A DNA stretch of 44,748 nt from Escherichia phage Schulenburg, in sequence record MK931438.1. One strand, 5' to 3'. The position numbers and the translations under genes are program-made. Below are positions 3,339 to 42,540 of the stretch, one piece after another (positions within the stretch are counted from its first letter, which is position 1; each line of letters starts with the position of its first letter). A model generated the notes under the pieces. That model saw only the letters and a list, made by a program, of their open reading frames with translations. It was not told where the DNA came from and searched no databases.

Positions 3339-3348
3339 GTTCACATAT

Positions 3349-3371
3349 AGCCCCGAAAGGGGCTTTCTTAT
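3349..3371 (+). terminator. intrinsic terminator-like hairpin after portal gene
   Basis: agcccc-gaaa-ggggct stem-loop followed by TTTCTTAT. Confidence 0.45.
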
Positions 3372-3407
3372 AGTATGCTATTAACTTTAGCGCCACAGGG
3401 TTTATCT

Positions 3408-4451
3408 ATGAGCTTACTTACATCTCTAATCAGCCACCAGATATGGCTGCAACGCACTGCATCCGGTGAGGTGAAAGACCTCGCGCCGTTCATTAAGGAG
3501 ATGCGGGACGAAATAAAACGGCAGGTGCTGTTATTCGGTGACGACGGGCGGAGCACTGCGCGACTGAATAAACTGTTACTCGACCTTGAAGAAGCGCTAA
3601 CCGGACTTACCGGCGATTGGCAAACAAAGCTGACAGAAGACCTTATGGAACTGGCGGCGTATGAGGCCGAGTGGAATGTAAAGACACTGACCACCAACGT
3701 AGATGCGGAATTTGTTACGCCTACTGCCGAACAGGTGTGGTCCGCTGCCGAGTTTCAACCCTTATCATTAAGCGACAAGCCTGTTGATTTCACTAAGCTG
3801 ATGTCGGGATGGGGTGAAACCGAAGTAGCACGTCTCGTAACCGGCGTTAAGATGGGCTTTGTTCAGGGTAAGACAACACGGCAGATTGTTAAGAATGTTG
3901 TTGGTGCTGGTGGTTTGGCGGACATTTCAGAACGTAACGCGGCTACTGTAATCCGCACCGCGCTGTCTCATGTATCCAACGAGGCCCGTAACGAGACGTA
4001 CCGCCAGAACGACGACATTATCGAGAAGTACGAGTGGGTGTCGACGCTGGACAGCCGTACCAGTACGATTTGTAGGGCCAGAGACGGAATGACGTGGGAA
4101 ATCGGTAAGGGGCCGATGCCCCCGGCCCATTTTGGGTGCCGAAGTACCACGGCACCTGTAATCAGTTCAGAGTTCGACTTCCTCGATAAAGGTGCAAAAC
4201 GTGCGGCTAAGGGCGCGGACGGAGGTACTCAGGTAAGCGCAGACACCACTTACTACGAGTTCCTGAAACAACAACCGGCGTGGTTCGTGGACGAAGCACT
4301 CGGGCCGACCCGCGGTGCGATATTCAGGAATAGTGGGATATCGCCAGAGGAATTCCGGGTAATATCTGTCGACGCTTTTGGTAGACCTTTAACCCTGAAG
4401 GAGATGGCGGAGTTAGACAACAGGGTTGCTGAATATCTTAGGTCGGTATAA
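3408..4451 (+). CDS. head morphogenesis protein (Mu gpF / SPP1 gp7-like)
   Basis: Follows portal; C-terminal motif AHFGCRSTTAP resembles the MuF-family H-x2-CRC signature; ATG 3408 (AGGG SD) preferred over ATG 3375, which lies in the terminator T-tract. Confidence 0.7.
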   Translation: MSLLTSLISHQIWLQRTASGEVKDLAPFIKEMRDEIKRQVLLFGDDGRSTARLNKLLLDLEEALTGLTGDWQTKLTEDLMELAAYEAEWNVKTLTTNVDAEFVTPTAEQVWSAAEFQPLSLSDKPVDFTKLMSGWGETEVARLVTGVKMGFVQGKTTRQIVKNVVGAGGLADISERNAATVIRTALSHVSNEARNETYRQNDDIIEKYEWVSTLDSRTSTICRARDGMTWEIGKGPMPPAHFGCRSTTAPVISSEFDFLDKGAKRAAKGADGGTQVSADTTYYEFLKQQPAWFVDEALGPTRGAIFRNSGISPEEFRVISVDAFGRPLTLKEMAELDNRVAEYLRSV

Positions 4452-4507
4452 AGTACACCTAGTAGCTAGCTTTGGTCGGTGAACTACTAAAAATAGAGAA
4501 AGAATAT

Positions 4508-4565
4508 AACCCCATGAAGGTATGCCTATCTCCGGCATCGACCAACCTTCATGGGGTTTTCTTAT
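4508..4565 (+). terminator. long hairpin plus T-tract (terminator-like)
   Basis: 12-14 bp stem ccccatgaaggt / accttcatgggg with ~23-nt loop, followed by TTTTCTTAT; the alternative ATG 4522 lies inside this hairpin. Confidence 0.45.
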
Positions 4566-4575
4566 AGGATTTAAT

Positions 4576-5145
4576 ATGGGAATTGTTTTTGGGGTAGGTA
4601 TTAATGATGTTTCACCAATAAGTTGCGGAGGGGTGCATATAGCGTCCTACGCCGGGTGGAAGAACATGTTAAAGAGGTGCTACGACAAGAAATGGCAGCA
4701 AAGAAACAGAACCTATACAGGTTGCCGTGTGTCTGACGATTGGTTGGTGTTCAGTAATTTCAAGGTCTGGTTTGATAATTTTTATGTACCTGGGTGGCAG
4801 ATAGATAAGGATTTACTGAACCCGGGAAATAAGGTTTACGATGCTTCTAACTGTGTTTTCATCCCCAAGTCCCTTAACACTTTCCTCACGGCCCACGACG
4901 CTCTTCGAGGCAAATACCCACTAGGTGTACATTTTCATAAACAAAAGAAAAGATTCATTGCCCAAGTATCCGTGGGTGGTGTATCTGAACAAATAGGCGC
5001 TTACGAAACCGCCCAAGAGGCACACGTAGCCTGGTTTCATAGAAAAATTGAATTAGCATATGAATACAAAGGCCTTTGCGATAGCATAGACCCACGCCTT
5101 TTCGAAGGCGTCTTACGTAAGATTAACTCAATGAAAGAGGTTTAG
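4576..5145 (+). CDS. HNH/AP2-type homing endonuclease-like protein
   Basis: N-terminal W-x2-M-x2-RC motif (GWKNMLKRC), degenerate His-Me-like region (IDKDLL..NCVFIP), C-terminal AP2-like segment (YETAQEAHVAW); AGGA SD 6 nt before ATG 4576. Confidence 0.55.
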   Translation: MGIVFGVGINDVSPISCGGVHIASYAGWKNMLKRCYDKKWQQRNRTYTGCRVSDDWLVFSNFKVWFDNFYVPGWQIDKDLLNPGNKVYDASNCVFIPKSLNTFLTAHDALRGKYPLGVHFHKQKKRFIAQVSVGGVSEQIGAYETAQEAHVAWFHRKIELAYEYKGLCDSIDPRLFEGVLRKINSMKEV

Positions 5146-5148
5146 TTT

Positions 5149-5607
5149 ATGGGCTTTTTTAAAGTAACTGATGTGCCGTCGCGTCGCGTAGTCCAATACG
5201 CCCGTGTATCCGGTTCTGGTGAGAACGTAACCTACGTTGAAGATGAAAGTGTACTAGGTACACCTGTAGACGAGATGCCGTATGTGGACAAGACCGGTAT
5301 CGCACTCTCTGCTGCTGGTATGCTTTATGAGATTCCGTATCTGGCAGATGCTGGTGATGTGTATTTCTCTGTGCAACCGAAAGACACCGAGCTGGTCGAC
5401 GGTAGCGCCACCATCACCGTCGAAGTTAAGGCGGGTAAAGCGCCGTATGTACTGACCTGGTACAAAGACGGGAAGGAAGTGGTGAACGCCCCGGAAGAGG
5501 CTCTGTCTCTGACTGTTAATGCGGCTGGTGAATACTTCACTAAAGTTACTGATGCCGATGGTGCGGAGGCCGTAAGCAAAGCGGCGAAGGTCTCTAAACC
5601 AGGATGA
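5149..5607 (+). CDS. Ig-like domain protein (possible capsid decoration)
   Basis: Beta-rich 152-aa ORF with Ig-like motif TVEVKAGKAPYVLTWYKDGKEV; AAAGAGG SD; in head module. Confidence 0.5.
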   Translation: MGFFKVTDVPSRRVVQYARVSGSGENVTYVEDESVLGTPVDEMPYVDKTGIALSAAGMLYEIPYLADAGDVYFSVQPKDTELVDGSATITVEVKAGKAPYVLTWYKDGKEVVNAPEEALSLTVNAAGEYFTKVTDADGAEAVSKAAKVSKPG

Positions 5608-5609
5608 TA

Positions 5610-5642
5610 AAAGGCCCCATAATGGGGCCTTAGTTTTATTTA
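5610..5642. terminator. bidirectional intrinsic terminator
   Basis: 8-bp stem aggcccca / tggggcct flanked by A-run upstream and TTTTATTT downstream; lies between convergent genes 5149-5607 (+) and 5636-6157 (-). Confidence 0.6.
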
Positions 5643-6157: not shown

Positions 6158-6184
6158 TTTATGCCTCCTGTTTAAGTTAACTGA

Positions 6185-6213
6185 ATAGTACCCTATTATA
6201 TTGGTGCGCGCAA
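6185..6213 (-). promoter_or_regulatory. type-B promoter/operator (TTGCGC-N17-TACTAT over palindrome AATAGGGTACTATT)
   Basis: Minus-strand TTGCGC, 17-nt spacer, TACTAT; inverted repeat AATAG-N4-CTATT overlaps the -10; about 30 nt upstream of moron start 6157. Confidence 0.45.
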
Positions 6214-6279
6214 ACTATTTATTTACGTATTCCAGTTATTCCACTCAATTGTAAACGTTGGAATAAACTATTCGAATAG

Positions 6280-6308
6280 TTGACTTTTCACTGAAAATAT
6301 GATAAGCT
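6280..6308 (+). promoter_or_regulatory. sigma70-like promoter (TTGACT-17-TAAGCT) of conserved RNA element, copy 1
   Basis: TTGACT, 17-nt spacer, TAAGCT; near-identical promoter and downstream sequence recur at about 37877. Confidence 0.5.
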
Positions 6309-6515
6309 CCACCTGAGCTTGTGAAGTATGAACAAGCGACCGCGGCGCGGGCAGGTAACGGAGCGGGACGTAAGTCCTGAGTGTAGTTACGCTGACGCGT
6401 TCGGAAGGGCCATAGTCTATTGCTTGTGTAAAAAGTAACTGGTTTACTGAGATTACGCCGTTTCTATGTTTAAATGATAAGGACTAGCGCCCCGCTTTAA
6501 GGCGGGGCTTTACTT
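6309..6515 (+). ncRNA. candidate promoter-proximal structured RNA / leader element (copy 1)
   Basis: About 40 nt (cctgagcttgtgaagtatgaacaagcgaccgcggcgcg) identical to copy 2, then about 130 nt diverged but alignable; hairpins gcttgt-N9-acaagc and ggac-GTAA-gtcc; ends with stem gccccgc/gcggggc plus TTTACTT just before the Rz SD. Confidence 0.3.
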
Positions 6516-13273: not shown

Positions 13274-13310
13274 AAGGAAAAGGCCCCTTTCGGGGCCTTT
13301 TCCTTATTCC
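13274..13310. terminator. strong bidirectional intrinsic terminator
   Basis: Perfect 14-bp stem aaggaaaaggcccc / ggggccttttcctt with TTTC loop, A-rich 5' side and T-rich 3' side; between convergent genes. Confidence 0.7.
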
Positions 13311-13477
13311 TTCAATTGCATTGGGTAGAAGTTAACGAGTTCTCCTTTATCCCGAAGCCGTGAATATTCATCTAACGCATCTTCCCGGCTACTTACAGCA
13401 TAGATATCATTCCACTCGTCCCATTCTTTGTCGTATACGCGGATTATGTATATTGTTTTCATTACATTCTTACTCAT
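13304..13477 (-). CDS. hypothetical small protein (57 aa)
   Basis: Minus-strand ORF, ATG at 13477 (M15 of track ORF 13304-13519); last gene of the moron operon. Confidence 0.4.
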   Translation of the reverse strand: MSKNVMKTIYIIRVYDKEWDEWNDIYAVSSREDALDEYSRLRDKGELVNFYPMQLKE

Positions 13478-13700
13478 CAATATTACTCCTGTACTCTCGT
13501 AACTTCTCCAGACTTTCAATTGCTTCCGCTAAGTCGGTTCCGGTGTCTTTGTGCCCGCGAAGGCCCATACACAATAGCTTCTTCAATGCGTGCTGTAGCG
13601 CCGGGTCGCGAATGTCGAAGGCACGCAGCACATCATAAACGTCTACTGTCATAGTGCTGCCGTGAGTGTTTGTCATTGTGCGGTTGTATTTATTTGTCAC
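13470..13700 (-). CDS. hypothetical conserved small phage protein
   Basis: 76-aa ORF with GTG start preceded by AAGAGAG; motif DVYDVLRAFDI...HALKKLL..GLRGHK. Confidence 0.45.
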   Translation of the reverse strand: MTNKYNRTMTNTHGSTMTVDVYDVLRAFDIRDPALQHALKKLLCMGLRGHKDTGTDLAEAIESLEKLREYRSNIDE

Positions 13701-13890
13701 TGTTAACTCTCTTAAATCTGGCTATGCCTGACTCGTTAATGTTGCCTATTTCAAAGAAGCTGCGATATTTAGGCGAATACATTCTTACATCGCCATTCTC
13801 TAGGGTGACCCCTTCATATACAGCACCTACTTCGAATCCATTTTTCTCCGCGTACGGACTCACATCGGTGCATTCATACATGTCTTTCAT
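13690..13890 (-). CDS. hypothetical protein (66 aa)
   Basis: ATG overlaps stop of upstream gene (ATGA); same operon. Confidence 0.45.
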   Translation of the reverse strand: MKDMYECTDVSPYAEKNGFEVGAVYEGVTLENGDVRMYSPKYRSFFEIGNINESGIARFKRVNSDK

Positions 13891-15017
13891 CCAAGCATCT
13901 CCGGTGAAATAGTTAAACGTGCGACCTCGCCATATTCGGCGCTATAAGTAATTACATTTGCACTACGACCTGACATCCATCCGCCGCGAGAGGCGTAGGC
14001 GTCTTTAGCCGCCAGGGTGCGGTGTTGCTCAACAACCATGTTACGGCTTTCTACAATCTTCTGATGGTGCAGGTGGCCTACATGGGCGTAGCTGTAAACA
14101 CTCTCGCCGAACGCTTTGCGGAACTTGGCAATCATAACCGGTTCGATAGCGTCGAATCGTGCCTTATGCCCGTGGTGAAAGAACAGCGTCGTTTTGCCGT
14201 GTTGCACCATCTTGTAAACATCTGGCGACGTGTCGACGAACACCCGCGGCTCGTTGTCGTACAGCGTACTAAACATCTCAGCTAACCAAATCATTCCGCT
14301 TTCGTCGTGGTTTCCTTGCACGATAAGCAAGCGAACATTTTTATGCTTAACCAGCGCCATACCGACAACACGGCGTACCATACGAATCATGTAGCGGACC
14401 AGTTTCTGATAACGAGTGTCCGCATCAAGAACATGACCACTCGCTGGCGTAACCGCATCCAGACTATCGAAGTGCGCGAAGTCACCCAGCAGGTTAATAA
14501 CCCCAGTTCCTGCATCTGGTGCTTTCTGAAACGCCGCATCGAACCATCGGGAGAACAGGTCTTCTGCAATCTTCATGTCCCAGTCGTCGCCGCTCTCGTC
14601 GGCCCAGGCCAGCATACCGAGATGGAAATCAGATACAGTGTAAAGATTAAGTAGTTTATCGTCACGTTTGGCGCGAACGGCTTTAACAGGCGCAACCGGC
14701 GTAATCTCTGACTTCATGCCCTCGATTACAGCTTTCATCAACTCGACCTGACGTTCAGCGTCAGTGTCTGTCTTAACCCATTGCAACTTAGTGTTGCCGA
14801 ACTCGTCCACAAGCGACGACGTTCCTTTAATCTTGTAGCCGTCCGGGACAAGATGGCTAACGTCACGACCGTGACCTACGCCTTTCTTCGCCAGCTTCGC
14901 TTTACGGATACGAATAACTCGGTCTGAGATGCCGTATTTACGGGATATGTCGATAATCTTTGTTCCGGCGTTCAATTCTTCCTGTAACTGTTCGTCGGTT
15001 ATTTTAATCCGGGCCAT
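13887..15017 (-). CDS. HTH-domain + calcineurin-like metallophosphoesterase
   Basis: Metallophosphoesterase motifs in order: DFHLG, GDFAHFD, GNHDE, HHGH, GHLHH; N-terminal ~100 aa HTH-like; GAGGAAG SD. Confidence 0.7.
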   Translation of the reverse strand: MARIKITDEQLQEELNAGTKIIDISRKYGISDRVIRIRKAKLAKKGVGHGRDVSHLVPDGYKIKGTSSLVDEFGNTKLQWVKTDTDAERQVELMKAVIEGMKSEITPVAPVKAVRAKRDDKLLNLYTVSDFHLGMLAWADESGDDWDMKIAEDLFSRWFDAAFQKAPDAGTGVINLLGDFAHFDSLDAVTPASGHVLDADTRYQKLVRYMIRMVRRVVGMALVKHKNVRLLIVQGNHDESGMIWLAEMFSTLYDNEPRVFVDTSPDVYKMVQHGKTTLFFHHGHKARFDAIEPVMIAKFRKAFGESVYSYAHVGHLHHQKIVESRNMVVEQHRTLAAKDAYASRGGWMSGRSANVITYSAEYGEVARLTISPEMLG

Positions 15018-15056: not shown

Positions 15057-15248
15057 TCACTTCTCTTTGACATTCGAGTTGCAAGCCCAGATTAAAATAA
15101 ATACCCACGGCAGCAGAACCCAGCCAAGAAACAGATTGGCCATGAATATCGCTAATTTCGCTTTATGACCCCGCATATGGGCCACTAAAAACGGGATAAA
15201 ATAAACTAAAACGATAATGATTAAGAAGAACATAGTAATACCTGTCAT
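15057..15248 (-). CDS. superinfection-immunity-like small membrane protein
   Basis: 63 aa, two predicted TM helices, motif YFIPFLVAHMRGHK...LGWVLLPWVFILIWA resembling Imm-type families; AGGAG SD. Confidence 0.5.
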   Translation of the reverse strand: MTGITMFFLIIIVLVYFIPFLVAHMRGHKAKLAIFMANLFLGWVLLPWVFILIWACNSNVKEK

Positions 15249-15289
15249 GGTGTAGCTCCTGTTTGAGTTAACATTGTTGGTGTAAGTGA

Positions 15290-15318
15290 ATAGTATCCTA
15301 TTATGTTGGGGTGCGCAA
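15290..15318 (-). promoter_or_regulatory. type-B promoter/operator (TTGCGC-N17-TACTAT over palindrome AATAGGATACTATT)
   Basis: Same architecture as sites near 6185, 38175 and 39101; about 40 nt upstream of the Imm-like gene. Confidence 0.45.
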
Positions 15319-15426
15319 GTAATGTGATAGAATAATTTTGCGCCTAGTGTCGCACACGAAAAGCGGGTGGTTCCCGTCTGGCGCATTTACCATTAACCTG
15401 TAACCTCTTAACCAAAGGATTAAAGA

Positions 15427-15843
15427 ATGAAACTTTCTGATTTTTATTACGAAGCTGAGGCAGAAAAAGGCGCCCGTATGCCGATACCACTGAAAGACGG
15501 CACCGATTCAGGGGAGTGGCTGAACGTTGTTTCACCGGAGGCAGACGTTGCTGTTAAAGCTATGAGGGCGTTTACACTTGCGTACCGCGCGGCATTAGGT
15601 AAATTGAAACCGCTTCGCGATAAATGCGAGGAACTGAAAGATTTCTCGGAATACAACATCAAGATGGAAGACGCCGCAACGGACCTTAACCGCCAGTTAG
15701 CGCTTGAACTGGTTAACGGTTGGAGTCTCGACGATGAATTTAATAAAGAGAACCTGAATACTCTTTTCTCACAATATAAACGACTCGCTGAACACGTTGT
15801 TGTTTTCCACAATGAACAGCTTCACCAATTGCAGGAAAAGTAG
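15427..15843 (+). CDS. tail assembly chaperone (gpG-like, putative)
   Basis: 138-aa ORF immediately upstream of tape measure gene. Confidence 0.5.
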   Translation: MKLSDFYYEAEAEKGARMPIPLKDGTDSGEWLNVVSPEADVAVKAMRAFTLAYRAALGKLKPLRDKCEELKDFSEYNIKMEDAATDLNRQLALELVNGWSLDDEFNKENLNTLFSQYKRLAEHVVVFHNEQLHQLQEK

Positions 15844-15848
15844 ACGCG

Positions 15849-16208
15849 TTGCTCCAGTTTGCCCGTTGGAACTTCATAACCCGCCACAAACGGCGGGAGT
15901 TTGACAGTATCGCCGACGGGCATAAAGCCGCGCTAATTGCTATGGGGGTTATGCAAGACGCGCCGGAAGCAACGCAGGACACAGGGCCGGAATGCCCCCC
16001 TGAGCTATTAACCACCTTCGAGAAGTACAGGGAAATCAAATTCACCCGCCGAGTGGACGATGATGGCATCAAGATGTACCCGCGCGAACAGTTAAGATGG
16101 TCGGATTTAGTGGCATACAGCACCGTTTCAGGCCAGAATATAGGCATGTTCGAATCTGACATCATCATGAGCTTAGACGCTATTTTCGAGGGTAGAAACG
16201 ATGGCTGA
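15849..16208 (+). CDS. tail assembly chaperone, second ORF (TTG start or frameshift extension)
   Basis: -1-frame ORF between chaperone 1 and TMP, overlapping TMP start; no ATG, only a TTG. Confidence 0.4.
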   Translation: MLQFARWNFITRHKRREFDSIADGHKAALIAMGVMQDAPEATQDTGPECPPELLTTFEKYREIKFTRRVDDDGIKMYPREQLRWSDLVAYSTVSGQNIGMFESDIIMSLDAIFEGRNDG

Positions 16209-18537
16209 TGTAGCTAGTTTAGTTGTAAAGGTATCAGAGCAAGGCGCGAAAGCTACATCGGACCGTCTTGATAATCTCTCCAAGTCGGCAAAAGTAGCGG
16301 GGGCAGCCGTAGCCGGACTCGCTTCAATCGTCGCCGCGACAGCGTACAAGGCCGCACAGGAACTGGTAGACTCCCAACGGCAACTGGACAAGATGTCCGC
16401 CAGCCTGAAAACGCTAACCGGAAGCACGCAGGGGGCAAGACAGGCGTTAAGCATCCTGCAAGACTTCGCGCGCGACACTCCGTATGGCCTTGAACAGGCG
16501 GTAGAGGGATTCCGTAAACTGGTGGCTCTCGGCCTTACCCCCTCAGAAGAAGCGTTGCGCTCCTATGGCAACACTGCCGCTGCTATGGGTAAAGACCTTA
16601 ATCAGATGATTGAGGCCGTTGCGGACGCCAGTACATTTGAATTTGAGCGCCTTAAAGAATTCGGCATCAAGGCCAAGCAGAACAAAAACGATGTTGAATT
16701 TACATTCCAGGGCACCACTACGGTAGTTAAGAAGAGCGCTGCCGACATCGAGCAATACCTGCTCAACATTGGTAACGTAAACTTCGCGGGGGCTATGGCG
16801 GACCAGGCCAACACACTTAACGGGGCCATCGCCAGTGCCAGCGACTCATGGTCGCAGTTAAAAATGACACTGGCTACCAGCCTTGATGTTGGTGCTCTTG
16901 CGGAGCCTATCCGGTACATCGATGATTTAATCCAGGAACTTAACGCACAGGTAGCATCCGGCGAACTCGCTGCTGAGATGCGTATGTGGGGCGACATCGC
17001 GTCAGAAGTGGGAAGCGCGATAGAGATGTCGTTCGACGCGGCATTTGGTTTCGTAGGCGACGCAATAAACGGGCTGAATGAACTTTGGGACTTTAGCAGT
17101 AAAAGTATCACCGATAGCGGCGAACAAACGGCGACAACCATCGCGGAATCAGCTGCCGATGCGCTCGATTTCATCGCGGAAGAATTTACCGCGATGGAGC
17201 GCTTCTTTGAAGATATGGTTAAAGGGGCACAGGACGCTGGCCGGTTGGTGAAAGCTGCCTTCACACCAGGGGAATCCGTAGACGTAGCAAAAAACATTAA
17301 CTTCCAGCTAGGGATGGCACTGGATACTCAGCGTGATGTTGCGGACCTGACCCGTAAAAGTTTCCGCGAACAGGTGGAGGCTCAGCAAAATATCGTCGCG
17401 CTTAAACGCGCGGCATATGACATCGACAAAGAAGCCGCTAAGGAAGAAGGGCTTAGTAAGTTTAAGGTAACTGGTGCCGGTGGCGGATCCGAAGATGATA
17501 GCGCAGGTGCAAAAGCCGCTAAGAAAGCGGCGGACGCGTTCGAGCGCCAGAAGAAAGCCGCTGAGGATTTCTACTACCAGTCGATTCATCTCAATGATGA
17601 CGTATTCCAGAAAATAGAAGCCAACCAGGAACAGCAGCTAACCAAGCTACAGGAGTTTTACGGCAATCAGCTTCTTAGCGACCAGCAATACGAGAACGCT
17701 AAAACTCAGATTATGTTGGAGGCGGACACCGCTCGCCAGGAAGAACTCGCCAAGCGGGAGAAAGAACGACAGGAGAAGAACCAGAAAGGTGAAGACTTCA
17801 TGGCTCAGACTATGGGTCAGAATGCCGCAGAGCTTGAGCTTTTGGAGATTCAGGAACAACAAAAACTGGACGTTGCGGACCGATACCGTGAACAGAATCT
17901 TATTAACGAGGAACAGTACCAGGCTGCGGTTAATGCTATAAACGACCAGTACGCGTTAAAACGCGCCAACGCTACAGGTAACGCTTTCGGCATGATGGCG
18001 GATAATATTAAATCGTCGCTTGGCGAAGCGTCTACCGCTTATAAAGCGTTTGCCATTGCGCAGGCCACCATCGCCACATACACATCCGCCATCGAGGCTT
18101 ATAAATCTGCATCGGCTATCCCTATTGTTGGATGGGTGCTCGGGCCTGTAGCAGCAGCTACAGCGGTAGCGGCAGGTCTCGCTAACATCAGCAAGATTCG
18201 TTCGGCCCGTGAGCAGGGCGGTAACTTAGCCGCAGGTCAGTTATCTACTATCGCGGAACGTAACAAGCCAGAAGTTATTATGCCTGCAGGGGCGTCACGC
18301 GTACGTACCGCGGAACAGATGCGCCAGATTATGGGCGAGAACGGCAACAAGTCAGGCGGTGACAGCGTGACAATCGTCAACAACACCACCGGACGAGTTG
18401 ATTCCGCCGTTACAGAGCGTGACGACGAAGGGCGGTTACGTGTTATCATCAGTGAAACAGTATCGGCGGCGTTACAAGACAGCAACAGTGCAATCTCCAA
18501 GTCCCGCCGGGCTACACGAAACCAGCCGGGGTATTAA
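16201..18537 (+). CDS. tail tape measure protein
   Basis: 778 aa, long Ala/Glu/Gln-rich coiled-coil segments, C-terminal hydrophobic stretch; position after chaperones. Confidence 0.85.
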   Translation: MADVASLVVKVSEQGAKATSDRLDNLSKSAKVAGAAVAGLASIVAATAYKAAQELVDSQRQLDKMSASLKTLTGSTQGARQALSILQDFARDTPYGLEQAVEGFRKLVALGLTPSEEALRSYGNTAAAMGKDLNQMIEAVADASTFEFERLKEFGIKAKQNKNDVEFTFQGTTTVVKKSAADIEQYLLNIGNVNFAGAMADQANTLNGAIASASDSWSQLKMTLATSLDVGALAEPIRYIDDLIQELNAQVASGELAAEMRMWGDIASEVGSAIEMSFDAAFGFVGDAINGLNELWDFSSKSITDSGEQTATTIAESAADALDFIAEEFTAMERFFEDMVKGAQDAGRLVKAAFTPGESVDVAKNINFQLGMALDTQRDVADLTRKSFREQVEAQQNIVALKRAAYDIDKEAAKEEGLSKFKVTGAGGGSEDDSAGAKAAKKAADAFERQKKAAEDFYYQSIHLNDDVFQKIEANQEQQLTKLQEFYGNQLLSDQQYENAKTQIMLEADTARQEELAKREKERQEKNQKGEDFMAQTMGQNAAELELLEIQEQQKLDVADRYREQNLINEEQYQAAVNAINDQYALKRANATGNAFGMMADNIKSSLGEASTAYKAFAIAQATIATYTSAIEAYKSASAIPIVGWVLGPVAAATAVAAGLANISKIRSAREQGGNLAAGQLSTIAERNKPEVIMPAGASRVRTAEQMRQIMGENGNKSGGDSVTIVNNTTGRVDSAVTERDDEGRLRVIISETVSAALQDSNSAISKSRRATRNQPGY

Positions 18538-25753: not shown

Positions 25754-25757
25754 ATAC

Positions 25758-25790
25758 AAAAGGCCCCGAAAGGGGCCTTTTCTCTACTTT
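25758..25790. terminator. bidirectional intrinsic terminator at structural/replication module boundary
   Basis: aaaaggcccc-gaaa-ggggcctttt hairpin with flanking A and T runs. Confidence 0.65.
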
Positions 25791-28048: not shown

Positions 28049-28348
28049 CTAACTATAATAGTTTGCTATTATGTCGTCAACCTCTTCTTTTGTTCCTACT
28101 ACAAAAACATTTGCGTCACGTTTACGAAGCCGTTTGTGCTCCCGTAACTGATGTTCCTCCGGTTCCGTGTTTTCATCCTTCTTCACCTCTACAAACCATA
28201 TAACCCCTCCCGGAAGGACAACCAACAGGTCAGGCGCTCCGTTTCTACCCTCATACACTATCTTACGAACGAGGCCGCCAAGGGCCTCGAATTGCTCTTT
28301 TGCGTATTTCTGAATCTTGCCTTCCGGAGTCATGAGCGCAAAACCCAT
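28049..28348 (-). CDS. VRR-NUC domain nuclease
   Basis: PD-(D/E)xK-type motif PDLLVV...WFVEVKKDE; 99 aa. Confidence 0.6.
   Translation of the reverse strand: MGFALMTPEGKIQKYAKEQFEALGGLVRKIVYEGRNGAPDLLVVLPGGVIWFVEVKKDENTEPEEHQLREHKRLRKRDANVFVVGTKEEVDDIIANYYS
28052..28080 (-). promoter_or_regulatory. type-A promoter with operator in spacer (TTGACG-17-TATAGT; ATAATAG-N4-CTATTAT)
   Basis: Minus-strand -35/-10 with 17-nt spacer containing a perfect 7-bp inverted repeat; overlaps the 3' end of the VRR-NUC gene. Confidence 0.55.
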
Positions 28349-31021: not shown

Positions 31022-31049
31022 TTAGTAAAAAGGCCCAATGAAGGGCCTT
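31022..31049 (-). terminator. intrinsic terminator-like hairpin (minus strand)
   Basis: aaggccc / gggcctt stem followed on minus strand by TTTTT; downstream of the DUF2815-like gene. Confidence 0.45.
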
Positions 31050-31068
31050 AGTTAAATTGATTCAGATA

Positions 31069-31753: not shown

Positions 31754-31782
31754 ACTATAATAGCTAACTATTCAGGTGTCAA
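31754..31782 (-). promoter_or_regulatory. type-A promoter with operator in spacer (TTGACA-17-TATAGT; AATAG-N4-CTATT)
   Basis: Perfect -35, 17-nt spacer containing inverted repeat gAATAGTTAGCTATTat; immediately after the DUF2800-like stop. Confidence 0.55.
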
Positions 31783-34290: not shown

Positions 34291-34319
34291 ACTATAATAG
34301 CGAACTATTCACTTGTCAA
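34291..34319 (-). promoter_or_regulatory. type-A promoter with operator in spacer (TTGACA-17-TATAGT; AATAG-N4-CTATT)
   Basis: Minus-strand promoter divergent from the HTH regulator gene; inverted repeat gAATAGTTCGCTATTat in spacer. Confidence 0.55.
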
Positions 34320-34322
34320 TGG

Positions 34323-34352
34323 GCTTTTCTAAAATAATTAATATGGTACTAT
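34323..34352 (+). promoter_or_regulatory. candidate promoter of HTH regulator with half-palindrome AATATGGTACTATT
   Basis: TACTAT -10-like hexamer with weak -35; operator-like motif related to the type-B sites. Confidence 0.35.
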
Positions 34353-34383
34353 TCACGCATCAACTAACTAAGGAGTAACTGAC

Positions 34384-37876: not shown

Positions 37877-37905
37877 GTTGACTTTTACTAAGAAATATGG
37901 TAAGC
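37877..37905 (+). promoter_or_regulatory. sigma70-like promoter (TTGACT-17-TAAGCT) of conserved RNA element, copy 2
   Basis: Same hexamers and spacing as the copy at about 6280. Confidence 0.5.
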
Positions 37906-38105
37906 TCAGCCTGAGCTTGTGAAGTATGAACAAGCGACCGCGGCGCGCGGCAGGCGAAACGAGCACGTGTAGCGTGTGGAGTGAGGCTCGCTAGCGCGTT
38001 TGGGAGGCCCAAAGTCTATTGTAATTCCCGCCTAAATATCTAAGTTACTGATTTGCCGTAGGTTATATCCGCAAGCTCACTCACTCTTGGTGCCTTCGGC
38101 ACCAC
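37906..38105 (+). ncRNA. candidate promoter-proximal structured RNA / leader element (copy 2)
   Basis: Shares the about 40-nt core and a further diverged about 130 nt with copy 1; hairpin gcttgt-N9-acaagc; ends near the ggtgcc-ttcg-ggcacc hairpin. Confidence 0.3.
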
Positions 38106-38174: not shown

Positions 38175-38203
38175 CTTGCACACCCCAACATAATAGGATA
38201 CTA
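38175..38203 (+). promoter_or_regulatory. type-B promoter/operator (TTGCAC-N17-TACTAT over palindrome AATAGGATACTATT)
   Basis: About 35 nt upstream of first early gene. Confidence 0.45.
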
Positions 38204-38238
38204 TTCACTTATCGGAACGAGACAGAGGAGTGAGGGTT

Positions 38239-39100: not shown

Positions 39101-39129
39101 TTGCACGATGGGGAAGAATAGGATACTAT
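39101..39129 (+). promoter_or_regulatory. type-B promoter/operator (TTGCAC-N17-TACTAT over palindrome AATAGGATACTATT)
   Basis: About 35 nt upstream of ATG 39161. Confidence 0.45.
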
Positions 39130-39160
39130 TCATTTACACAAACGAGAGGAGAGGCAGAAT

Positions 39161-41436: not shown

Positions 41437-41710
41437 GTTATTCTGGTTTGGCGGTATGCTCGCTATCGGAGGCACATCGCTGTTTAACGTATACCACCCC
41501 AGCGTTGACGACGGGCTATTCGGTCGGGTGCTCTATATCCTGACCGCTATCGTCTGCGCCGCCGGGTGTATCCACCTGCTACAGGGCAGCGTGTCACCAA
41601 CGTTGCCGGAAACACTAATCACCCTGGTAGCGCTGCGACAGATTCGTCAATCGTGGCTGCATTACCAGTCGAAAGGAGGACATAAGCGTGTCTCGAAACA
41701 TTTCAGATAA
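41429..41710 (+). CDS. holin-like / antiholin membrane protein (putative)
   Basis: 93 aa from ATG 41429 (AGGAGG SD), two predicted TM helices, basic C-terminus; overlaps both neighbours. Confidence 0.45.
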   Translation: MNELFWFGGMLAIGGTSLFNVYHPSVDDGLFGRVLYILTAIVCAAGCIHLLQGSVSPTLPETLITLVALRQIRQSWLHYQSKGGHKRVSKHFR

Positions 41711-42191
41711 TGGATTGCAGTTCAAGAAAGCGTGGGAGAAGTTTCGTGGAACTGCGTACAAAGCCACAAAGAACGAGAAATACTGGACTATAGGCTGGGG
41801 CCATACCGGACCAGATGTGTACGAAGGGCAGAAGATTACCGAGGGTCAGGGGTTGCTGTTACTTAACCGTGATATGCAGTGGGCGGTGAAAGCAGTAGAC
41901 GAGGTGGCGCATCCATCGCTTACCCAGGCCCAGTTTGATGCCGTTGTTGACCTGGTGTTTAACGCCGGAACTGGTGTTATCGCAGCGACTACCGGAACCG
42001 GTAAGGCGCTACGGCAGGGGGACATCGCAGCCTTACGGCACAAGATGAGCCAGTTCATTAACCAGCGCAACCCTAAGACCGGTAAACTTGAACCTGTTCT
42101 GGGCCTGCGCCGTCGTGTAGCGGGTCGCCTGGCGCTGTTCGACGGTAAACCGTGGCAGGAGGCGGAGGATATCGGGAGGGCTGTTAAGTGA
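41688..42191 (+). CDS. endolysin, GH24 phage lysozyme
   Basis: T4-lysozyme-like motifs WEKFRGTAYK and YWTIGWGHTG; GTG start with AAAGGAGGA SD. Confidence 0.85.
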   Translation: MSRNISDNGLQFKKAWEKFRGTAYKATKNEKYWTIGWGHTGPDVYEGQKITEGQGLLLLNRDMQWAVKAVDEVAHPSLTQAQFDAVVDLVFNAGTGVIAATTGTGKALRQGDIAALRHKMSQFINQRNPKTGKLEPVLGLRRRVAGRLALFDGKPWQEAEDIGRAVK

Positions 42192-42323
42192 TGGACGAAT
42201 ACGAAGGTGTTTAGTATTATGGTTAAGCCAAGTTTTTCGTATTTGCATACTAAGCCTTGGTAAACCTGAAGCAGCAGCCCAAGCGGTGGAGACTGCGTAG
42301 GGTTCAGAGGCTTATGACCGAAA

Positions 42324-42352
42324 CCCGGACCGCGAATCCGGGTTTTATTTTA
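42324..42352 (+). terminator. intrinsic terminator 1 after lysis cassette
   Basis: acccgga-ccgcgaa-tccgggt hairpin followed by TTTATTTT. Confidence 0.6.
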
Positions 42353-42356
42353 CCAA

Positions 42357-42385
42357 TTGACACCTGAGAATAATCCGACGATACT
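42357..42385 (+). promoter_or_regulatory. candidate promoter (TTGACA-17-GATACT)
   Basis: Perfect -35 with weak -10, located between the two terminators. Confidence 0.3.
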
Positions 42386-42424
42386 TAAATCACCTCCTGT
42401 TCCATCCCTCTGCTCTCCAGTTTT

Positions 42425-42457
42425 ATCCCGGCCCTGACCCAGCCGGGATTTTTTTTA
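42425..42457 (+). terminator. intrinsic terminator 2 after lysis cassette
   Basis: 8-bp stem atcccggc / gccgggat followed by 7-8 T. Confidence 0.65.
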
Positions 42458-42478
42458 TCTATTTTCTGTAATGACTAG

Positions 42479-42507
42479 TTGACTATTACCTACGACCCTA
42501 TTATATT
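42479..42507 (+). promoter_or_regulatory. sigma70-like promoter (TTGACT-17-TATATT)
   Basis: About 35 nt upstream of ATG 42541. Confidence 0.5.
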
Positions 42508-42540
42508 TACTTCATCGACAACGAGAACGGAGTAGAGAAG

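Follow-up and report, generated by a model that had tools for sequence, protein, structure and literature searches.

An Imm-family membrane protein gene beside the tape measure gene of Escherichia phage Schulenburg: a probable superinfection exclusion protein

Results

The locus and its genes

The window analyzed here is the whole stretch of 44,748 nucleotides deposited as sequence record MK931438.1 (Escherichia phage Schulenburg), and all positions refer to it. The order of its open reading frames tracks the gene map of Escherichia phage Snoke (MK931441; Guernseyvirinae, Kagunavirus) from the terminase to the lysis genes, and we therefore consider the record to be a complete lytic siphovirus genome. 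The approximately 3.5 kb surrounding the imm locus are 99.5% identical to Snoke, and 447 phage records match this 3.5-kb region, chiefly from Kagunavirus and the Salmonella phages of Jerseyvirus. The two otherwise near-identical genomes seem to differ in an intein region: Snoke has one intein-containing capsid morphogenesis gene at 3408-5267, and Schulenburg has two ORFs (3375-4451 and 4522-5145) at 3375-5145.

The imm gene heads a counter-oriented operon of five genes that is set inside the rightward tail-gene module (Table 1). Between the imm stop codon and the second gene, for a phosphoesterase, are 39 nt; in our reading of the sequence no T-run terminator lies between the two, and the sequence scan lists none there. 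Of the three small ORFs at the end of the operon, only the one of 76 aa has PHROG matches, and these are to families of unknown function or with weak labels. The hairpin at 13278-13302, where the leftward operon and the tail-tube gene both end, is annotated as a terminator on both strands in Snoke and in fBC-Eco01. The small-ORF block and the phosphoesterase gene keep the same leftward orientation as imm.

GC-rich hairpins of the form AAAAGGCCCC-loop-GGGGCCTTTT (repeat families D4, D15, and D16) are found at gene-orientation switches in the Schulenburg genome, at 3343-3366, 5608-5640, 13278-13302, 25757-25789, and 31026-31058. Several of these orientation-switch hairpins are bidirectional terminators in the Snoke annotation.

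Table 1. Features of the imm locus and of related motifs in the Schulenburg genome.
Feature	Position	Strand	Evidence
imm; Imm-family (PF14373), 63 aa, predicted two-helix inner-membrane hairpin	15057..15248	-	ORF, Pfam, PHROG, BLASTP, dN/dS, AlphaFold2
Shine-Dalgarno sequence of imm, AGGAG	15256..15260	-	7 nt 5' of the ATG at 15248; read from the sequence
5' region wrongly read as coding in the 109-aa ORF (coding in Snoke CPT_Snoke_025)	15249..15386	-	109-aa ATG in 4/25; holds the promoter and the opposite-strand RNA motif
Putative sigma-70-like promoter: TTGCGC (-35, 15318-15313), 17-nt spacer, TACTAT (-10, 15295-15290)	15290..15318	-	Motif recurrence, Jerseyvirus conservation
Partly palindromic 18-nt motif ATAATAGGATACTATTCA within the imm promoter	15304-15287	-	
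Copies of the promoter motif	6182-6199(-), 15287-15304(-), 28055-28072(-), 31757-31774(+), 34294-34311(+)		
Copies of the promoter motif, remainder	34338-34355(+), 38190-38207(+), 39115-39132(+), 42472-42489(-)		
Second operon gene; calcineurin-like phosphoesterase / "DNA repair exonuclease"	13887..15017	-	phrog_704 (E 3.8e-164); weak Metallophos Pfam matches
Operon end; three small overlapping ORFs (66, 76, and ~57-71 aa)	13304..13890	-	ORF list, Snoke annotation
Bidirectional intrinsic-terminator-type hairpin AAAAGGCCCCTTTCGGGGCCTTTTC; ends the leftward operon and the tail-tube gene	13278..13302	both	Repeat family D15
Tape measure protein, 778 aa, TM-like segment at residues ~636-664; proposed target class on incoming virions	16201..18537	+	ORF, Snoke annotation; role as target by inference
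Segments divergent between allele types	imm codons 1-25, 15173-15248; TAC-TMP, 15427-18537		IMG/VR loci L013-L036

Start codon and selection

The ORF on the minus strand at 15057..15248 encodes the 63-aa protein MTGITMFFLIIIVLVYFIPFLVAHMRGHKAKLAIFMANLFLGWVLLPWVFILIWACNSNVKEK. Mechanical ORF calling extends the frame to 109 aa (15057..15386), and the Snoke gene CPT_Snoke_025 is annotated in this longer form. A Shine-Dalgarno sequence precedes the ATG of the shorter version; at its position the relatives show GGAG, GGAGGG, or AAGGGG. The ATG of the 63-aa version is present in all 25 Kagunavirus sequences, whereas that of the 109-aa version occurs in only four; in the others the longer frame is shut by stop codons or indels. 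Jerseyvirus phages contain only an ORF of 58/59 aa with an equivalent start. The start codon, Shine-Dalgarno sequence, and stop codon of imm are kept across two genera, Kagunavirus and Jerseyvirus.

We compared the 25 Kagunavirus copies of imm for signs of selection. Within allele types the dN/dS ratio is 0.05, and it is 0.01-0.06 at codons 28-63, with dS between 0.3 and 0.7. A ratio of about 0.05 indicates that imm is a coding gene under selection and not a chance ORF.

Two other readings of the frame were weighed against this one. The longer product, as annotated in Snoke, might be the true protein and carry a cytoplasmic N-terminal extension of 46 residues; the frame is indeed open from the ATG at 15386 in Schulenburg, Snoke, fBC-Eco01, and three IMG/VR contigs. 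However, that ATG is missing or its frame is shut in 21 of the 25 Kagunavirus sequences, and likewise in Jerseyvirus; the 18 nt before it, gttacaggttaatggtaa, contain no visible purine run resembling a Shine-Dalgarno sequence; and five relatives (K1ind1, fBC-Eco01, phiEc3, phiWAO78-1, and UTEC10) annotate the 192-nt gene. The conserved promoter sits inside the extension, and the nucleotide conservation of the extension is accounted for by an int-alpA-like RNA motif on the other strand (described below). We regard the longer product as highly improbable. The shorter start is preferred because the 109-aa ATG is rare among the relatives, because stop codons and indels occur upstream, and because the promoter falls within the extension; these comparisons support the 63-aa start as correct and the 109-aa start as over-long. 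An imm ORF without function, present by chance or decaying, could be suspected from its short length and AT-rich composition (GC 0.39), but this reading is effectively refuted by the selection analysis (dN/dS 0.05 against dS of 0.3-0.7), and it also conflicts with the retention of start, Shine-Dalgarno sequence, and stop in two genera and with a profile match over the full length. We give it next to no chance.

The original prediction had placed the start at a Shine-Dalgarno-supported ATG at 15248 and had considered the 109-aa ORF over-extended. Both claims hold: AGGAG at 15260-15256 lies 7 nt upstream of this ATG, the two start codons are found in 25/25 and 4/25 of the Kagunavirus sequences, respectively, and the promoter is within the extension.

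Family membership and predicted structure

The 63-aa protein matches the Pfam family PF14373 (Imm_superinfect) over profile positions 1-42 of 42, with 51.6 bits against a cut-off of 27.9 (E 8.7e-14), and phrog_1039, "immunity to superinfection", with an E-value of 1.4e-23. T4 Imm is also grouped in phrog_1039 (PMC9409062). BLASTP gave a gapless alignment of 54 aa between Schulenburg Imm and T4 Imm (from NC_000866), in which 30% of the positions are identical and 57% positive (E 2e-12). A word-indexed protein search returned only nine near-identical relatives and added nothing beyond the Pfam result. NCBIfam and PADLOC have no model for either Schulenburg Imm or T4 Imm, sequence searches of a copy of the PDB with each of the two proteins gave no match, and a Foldseek search of the AlphaFold2 model against viral predicted structures gave none either, as expected for a helical hairpin of 63 residues. 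Judged by its sequence, the imm product is a minimal member of the T4 Imm family.

Conservation was assessed in T4 Imm and 150 representatives of the family, 151 sequences in all. The family motif Y-F-x-P-x-x-x-A-x-x-R-x-H ... N-x-x-x-G-W-x-x-x-G-W ... W is found in Schulenburg Imm with one exception, residue 47, where Schulenburg has P and 91% of the family have G. The near-invariant residues present are Y16, F17, P19, A23, R26, H28, I34, N38, G42, W43, W48, and W54. In the gapless alignment R26 and W43 correspond to R33 and W50 of T4 Imm, and 97% and 99% of the 151 sequences, respectively, share these residues. The family as a whole is large: an exhaustive HMMER search (E <= 1e-3) yielded 7,673 clusters at 50% identity. 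In a Pfam scan its longest members showed occasional fusions to zinc-ribbon, SHOCT, or other domains, which gave no functional clue.

In Schulenburg Imm, residues 1-25 and 32-60 form two hydrophobic stretches free of charged residues, the basic loop R26-G-H-K-A-K31 lies between them, and a C-terminal tail of eight residues has a net charge of +1. The AlphaFold2 model contains helices at residues 2-25 and 29-61 (mean pLDDT 77.7). The protein is predicted to be an inner-membrane helical hairpin whose two termini face the periplasm and whose basic loop, R26-K31, faces the cytoplasm. The original prediction had described a 63-aa protein with two transmembrane segments and an Imm-like identity, and had named an HMM search against superinfection-immunity profiles as a check. 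The ORF is as quoted there, the two hydrophobic stretches and the two modeled helices agree with the transmembrane segments, and the profile search (PF14373, 51.6 bits; phrog_1039, E 1.4e-23) together with the BLASTP match to T4 Imm (E 2e-12) confirms the family assignment.

T4 Imm (UniProt P08986; PF14373, phrog_1039) and Schulenburg Imm are homologous, and both come from strictly lytic phages. T4 Imm has hydrophobic stretches at residues 3-32 and 37-65 joined by the loop RGSK, and the two proteins have the loop pattern M-R-G-x-K in common. Compared with T4 Imm, the Schulenburg protein is 20 residues shorter, with seven fewer residues at the N-terminus, and it lacks the hydrophilic C-terminal tail. 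It is also nearer to the family consensus, with H28, N38, and G42 where T4 Imm has S, S, and N. The genes differ in their surroundings: the neighbors of Schulenburg imm are the genes for the tail chaperone and the tape measure protein, and those of T4 imm are genes of DNA metabolism (gene 42, imm.1, and gene 43).

Within the Guernseyvirinae, the genes CPT_Snoke_025 of Snoke, gp28c of fBC-Eco01, gp22 of K1ind1, gp53 of SE2, and Gp_027 of SeF1 represent the same gene at the same locus, with 58-100% protein identity; they show no substantive difference from Schulenburg imm, and the Snoke record has the over-long 109-aa start. The annotation of imm is already known from public records: the labels "superinfection immunity protein" or "immunity to superinfection" appear in the records of Snoke, fBC-Eco01, K1ind1, SE2, SS3e, and many others, and published papers on fBC-Eco01, on a Jerseyvirus, and on K1B4 (PMC12645636) treat the gene as one for superinfection immunity, in each case as a homology call.

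Promoter, repeated motif, and operon

The promoter-like site upstream of imm belongs to a set of repeated sequences. A near-identical copy of its 29-mer is present at 38176-38204, and the core motif ATAATAGnnnACTATTCA occurs nine times in the Schulenburg genome against 0.06 copies expected by chance. Six of the copies lie 25-35 nt ahead of a ribosome-binding site and ATG. On the Snoke map, the genes behind these copies are those for the sliding clamp, imm, a small gene near 28 kb, a Cro-like regulator, and small genes at 38-39 kb. A promoter class common to the sliding clamp, the Cro-like regulator, and the small genes at 38-39 kb fits non-late expression of imm. The same promoter motif was reported in the PHIRE analysis in the published paper on fBC-Eco01. 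In Jerseyvirus the position of the imm promoter and its 17-nt spacing are kept, in the form TTGCAT-17-TATTAT. By our own count, the hexamers of the Schulenburg site agree with the sigma-70 consensus at 7 of 12 positions, and the consensus scan did not report the site, which is a putative promoter.

The motif forms an imperfect palindrome, TAATAG-N4-CTATT(C/A), over the -10 element, and Jerseyvirus retains both half-sites with the same 4-nt spacing. Two tandem copies lie immediately 5' of the gene for the Cro-like regulator, which suggests that the palindrome is an operator for a phage HTH regulator. The imm palindrome also yields a promoter-like site on the plus strand, TTAACA-17-TAGTAT (15268-15296), which faces the tail operon and whose -10 element overlaps that of the imm promoter. 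Elsewhere in the genome, a 71-nt direct repeat with 87% identity (family D2; 6279-6349 and 37877-37947, both on the plus strand) has a promoter-like start, GTTGACTTTT...ATATGATAAGCT, followed by 40 identical nucleotides, GAGCTTGTGAAGTATGAACAAGCGACCGCGGCGCG; this repeat may be a second class of promoter with a shared leader.

A match to the Rfam family RF02996 (int-alpA RNA) lies on the plus strand at 15337-15401, between the imm promoter and the ATG of the tail assembly chaperone gene at 15427. It covers the full model with 32.5 bits against a gathering threshold of 35.8 (E 2.4e-5 for a 201-nt stretch, 0.005 for the whole genome), and it is the only copy in the Schulenburg genome. All six relatives tested match RF02996, phiEc3 with 36.6 bits, above the gathering threshold. 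The core of the motif is nearly invariant over Kagunavirus and its flanks are variable. In hairpin 1, two base pairs are compensatory between Kagunavirus and Jerseyvirus (GUG/CAC to CGG/CCG). The motif may act as a leader for the operon that holds the tail chaperone and tape measure genes.

The original prediction had imm driven by a type-B promoter and as the first gene of a moron island. The promoter part stands in that the repeated motif is present and its position and spacing are kept in Jerseyvirus; against it are the 7/12 agreement with the sigma-70 consensus and the failure of the consensus scan to find the site. As to the moron, imm is the first of five genes in an operon with its own promoter and terminator, as far as these signals can be predicted, and its GC content, 0.39, is below that of the genome (0.50) and of the tail-tube and tape measure genes (0.53). 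A Phe/Ile/Leu-rich membrane protein would lower the GC content in any case. The promoter-like motif and the hairpin at 13278-13302 bound the five-gene unit and not imm alone. In the sense of Juhala and Hendrix, a moron differs in base composition from its surroundings, as imm does, and is absent from close relatives, which imm is not: it lies between the phosphoesterase and tail assembly chaperone genes in every Kagunavirus and Jerseyvirus locus examined. Because it was found in every one of these loci, imm is not "extra" relative to the close relatives, and the term moron is only partly apt, as it suits the appearance of the gene but not its distribution.

Allele types of imm and of the tail assembly chaperone and tape measure genes

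The imm genes of Kagunavirus fall into two types, type A (MTGITMFF...AHMRGHK) and type B (MSSLPVSL...AYFRNHK). They differ at codons 1-27, with a dN of 0.53 and a saturated dS in the comparison of A with B, and hardly at all at codons 28-63. Schulenburg carries type A. The divergently transcribed TAC and TMP genes, for the tail assembly chaperone and tape measure protein, also occur as two types, 1 and 2, with approximately 54% and 52% protein identity between them, respectively. The divergent segments of imm and of TAC/TMP are separated by a conserved island of 100-150 nt with 96-98% identity. The flanking phosphoesterase and tail tube genes do not split into types, with the exception of the phosphoesterase of one IMG/VR locus (L033; 60%).

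The types of imm and TAC/TMP agree in 22 of 24 IMG/VR loci and in 49 of 53 GenBank phages, counts that come from phylogenetically non-independent genomes. Among the GenBank phages, 21 are A/1, 28 are B/2, one is A/2 (fEg-Eco19), and three are B/1 (HSE2, LM02P1, and UTEC10). These four natural recombinants were isolated as plaque-forming phages; the two recombinants among the IMG/VR loci are L016 and L024. In the loci profiled, the small-ORF block 1.2 kb away has no association with the imm type. Plain linkage alone is sufficient to account for the association between the alleles, because the divergent segments are less than 200 bp apart and the small-ORF block at 1.2 kb does not follow the imm type.

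Tentatively, the part of Imm encoded by codons 1-27 might set specificity and be matched to the TAC/TMP allele of the same phage, with which the agreement of the types would fit, and the Kagunaviruses would then form at least two mutual-exclusion groups (A/1 and B/2); we rate this well short of an even bet. If such matched pairs exist, the rare recombinants would exclude the other group and not their own.

Discussion

The imm gene of Schulenburg encodes a 63-aa protein of the Imm family, predicted to reside in the inner membrane, and is the first gene of a leftward operon. By analogy with T4, its most likely role is to block the entry of DNA from later phages of the same kind by binding their tape measure protein; we assign this reading a probability of about 0.65. 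Transcription would run leftward from the sigma-70-like promoter at 15318-15290, with imm as the first of the five genes. The protein would be made in the infected cell, and the DNA of later phages of the same kind would be stopped at the inner membrane. As in the proposal for T4 Imm, it would bind the tape measure protein put into the membrane by the incoming tail, and with the tape measure protein so bound, the DNA conduit would stay shut.

The analogy draws on what has been described for T4. T4 Imm keeps superinfecting DNA out of the cytoplasm (note in the T4 record, NC_000866). In a 2026 preprint, T4 Imm was co-purified with part of gp29, the tape measure protein of T4, and is reported to be positioned against a helical-bundle domain of gp29; the substitutions R33A and W50A weakened exclusion, and the proposal is that Imm prevents gp29 from opening a conduit for the DNA (bioRxiv 10.64898/2026.03.06.709160). 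A block of DNA entry by Schulenburg Imm is a reasonable inference from its kinship with T4 Imm, and tape measure binding would be a further step along the same analogy. Schulenburg is a siphovirus, and its tape measure protein is unrelated in sequence to gp29: BLASTP between the two detected no similarity (best E 0.55), so the binding partner of Imm is not transferable from T4 by homology. A TM-like segment is present in both proteins, at residues 636-664 of the Schulenburg tape measure protein and at residues 227-259 of gp29. This segment and the association of the imm and TAC/TMP alleles bear on tape measure binding only indirectly.

HK97 gp15 is reportedly a small inner-membrane protein whose gene lies in the tail-gene module, near the tape measure gene. 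It is a moron for superinfection exclusion, encoded among the tail genes of a siphovirus, and is an analogue of Schulenburg Imm in logic. HK97 is temperate and gp15 is expressed from the prophage, whereas Schulenburg is lytic and imm is conserved across the subfamily. A parallel between T4 Imm and HK97 gp15 has been drawn before (bioRxiv 10.64898/2026.03.06.709160). SieA of phage P22 is likewise an inner-membrane protein and stops the entry of DNA from superinfecting phages (PMC10883804). It is expressed from the prophage, and it showed no sign of kinship to Schulenburg Imm, whose Pfam and PHROG matches were to the Imm family only.

The fold of PF14373 could also serve another purpose, for instance in a small inner-membrane protein that alters the physiology of the host membrane through protection from lysis from without, lysis timing, or modulation of a transporter. 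The family is very large and mostly uncharacterized, with its 7,673 clusters and its zinc-ribbon and SHOCT fusions, and because T4 Imm is the only member with a tested function, the family name may over-generalize. Our literature search, which included the BASEL paper on Kagunavirus isolates, found no exclusion experiment or other functional data for a Guernseyvirinae Imm homologue. T4 Imm is toxic at high induction (bioRxiv 10.64898/2026.03.06.709160), and in K1B4, the one Kagunavirus with a transcriptome paper among those found, the imm homologue is placed among the late-peaking genes, loosely tied to lysis (PMC12645636), although this "late" class is weak evidence on timing in either direction because it also holds DNA polymerase and the sampling spanned 15-120 min. 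On the other hand, T4 Imm, the sole member with a tested function, acts in exclusion, Schulenburg Imm keeps the residues important for T4 exclusion, and the lysis genes are distant from imm: the holins and endolysin of Snoke are at 41458-42521, and the matching Schulenburg ORFs are at approximately 41.1-42.2 kb. We consider a role in membrane physiology unlikely, while still giving it some weight. A holin or an antiholin-like lysis protein would resemble the imm product in its small size, its two hydrophobic helices, and its charged C-terminus. Neither Pfam nor PHROGs, however, gave a match to a holin family, and the match to PF14373 is strong and specific; the C-terminal tail is just eight residues long with a net charge of +1, and imm is 26 kb away from the holin and endolysin cassette at about 41-42 kb. 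This very improbable identity was rejected.

Superinfection exclusion thus remains our preferred reading of imm. The result confirms the existing homology-based annotation and corrects an over-long start in at least one GenBank record, that of Snoke. With imm beside the tape measure gene, two allele pairs, and natural recombinants, this small and easily engineered group of siphoviruses makes a simple cross-exclusion experiment possible. Such an experiment could show whether Imm proteins generally recognize tape measure proteins and what sets their specificity, which is of relevance to therapeutic cocktails that mix related phages.
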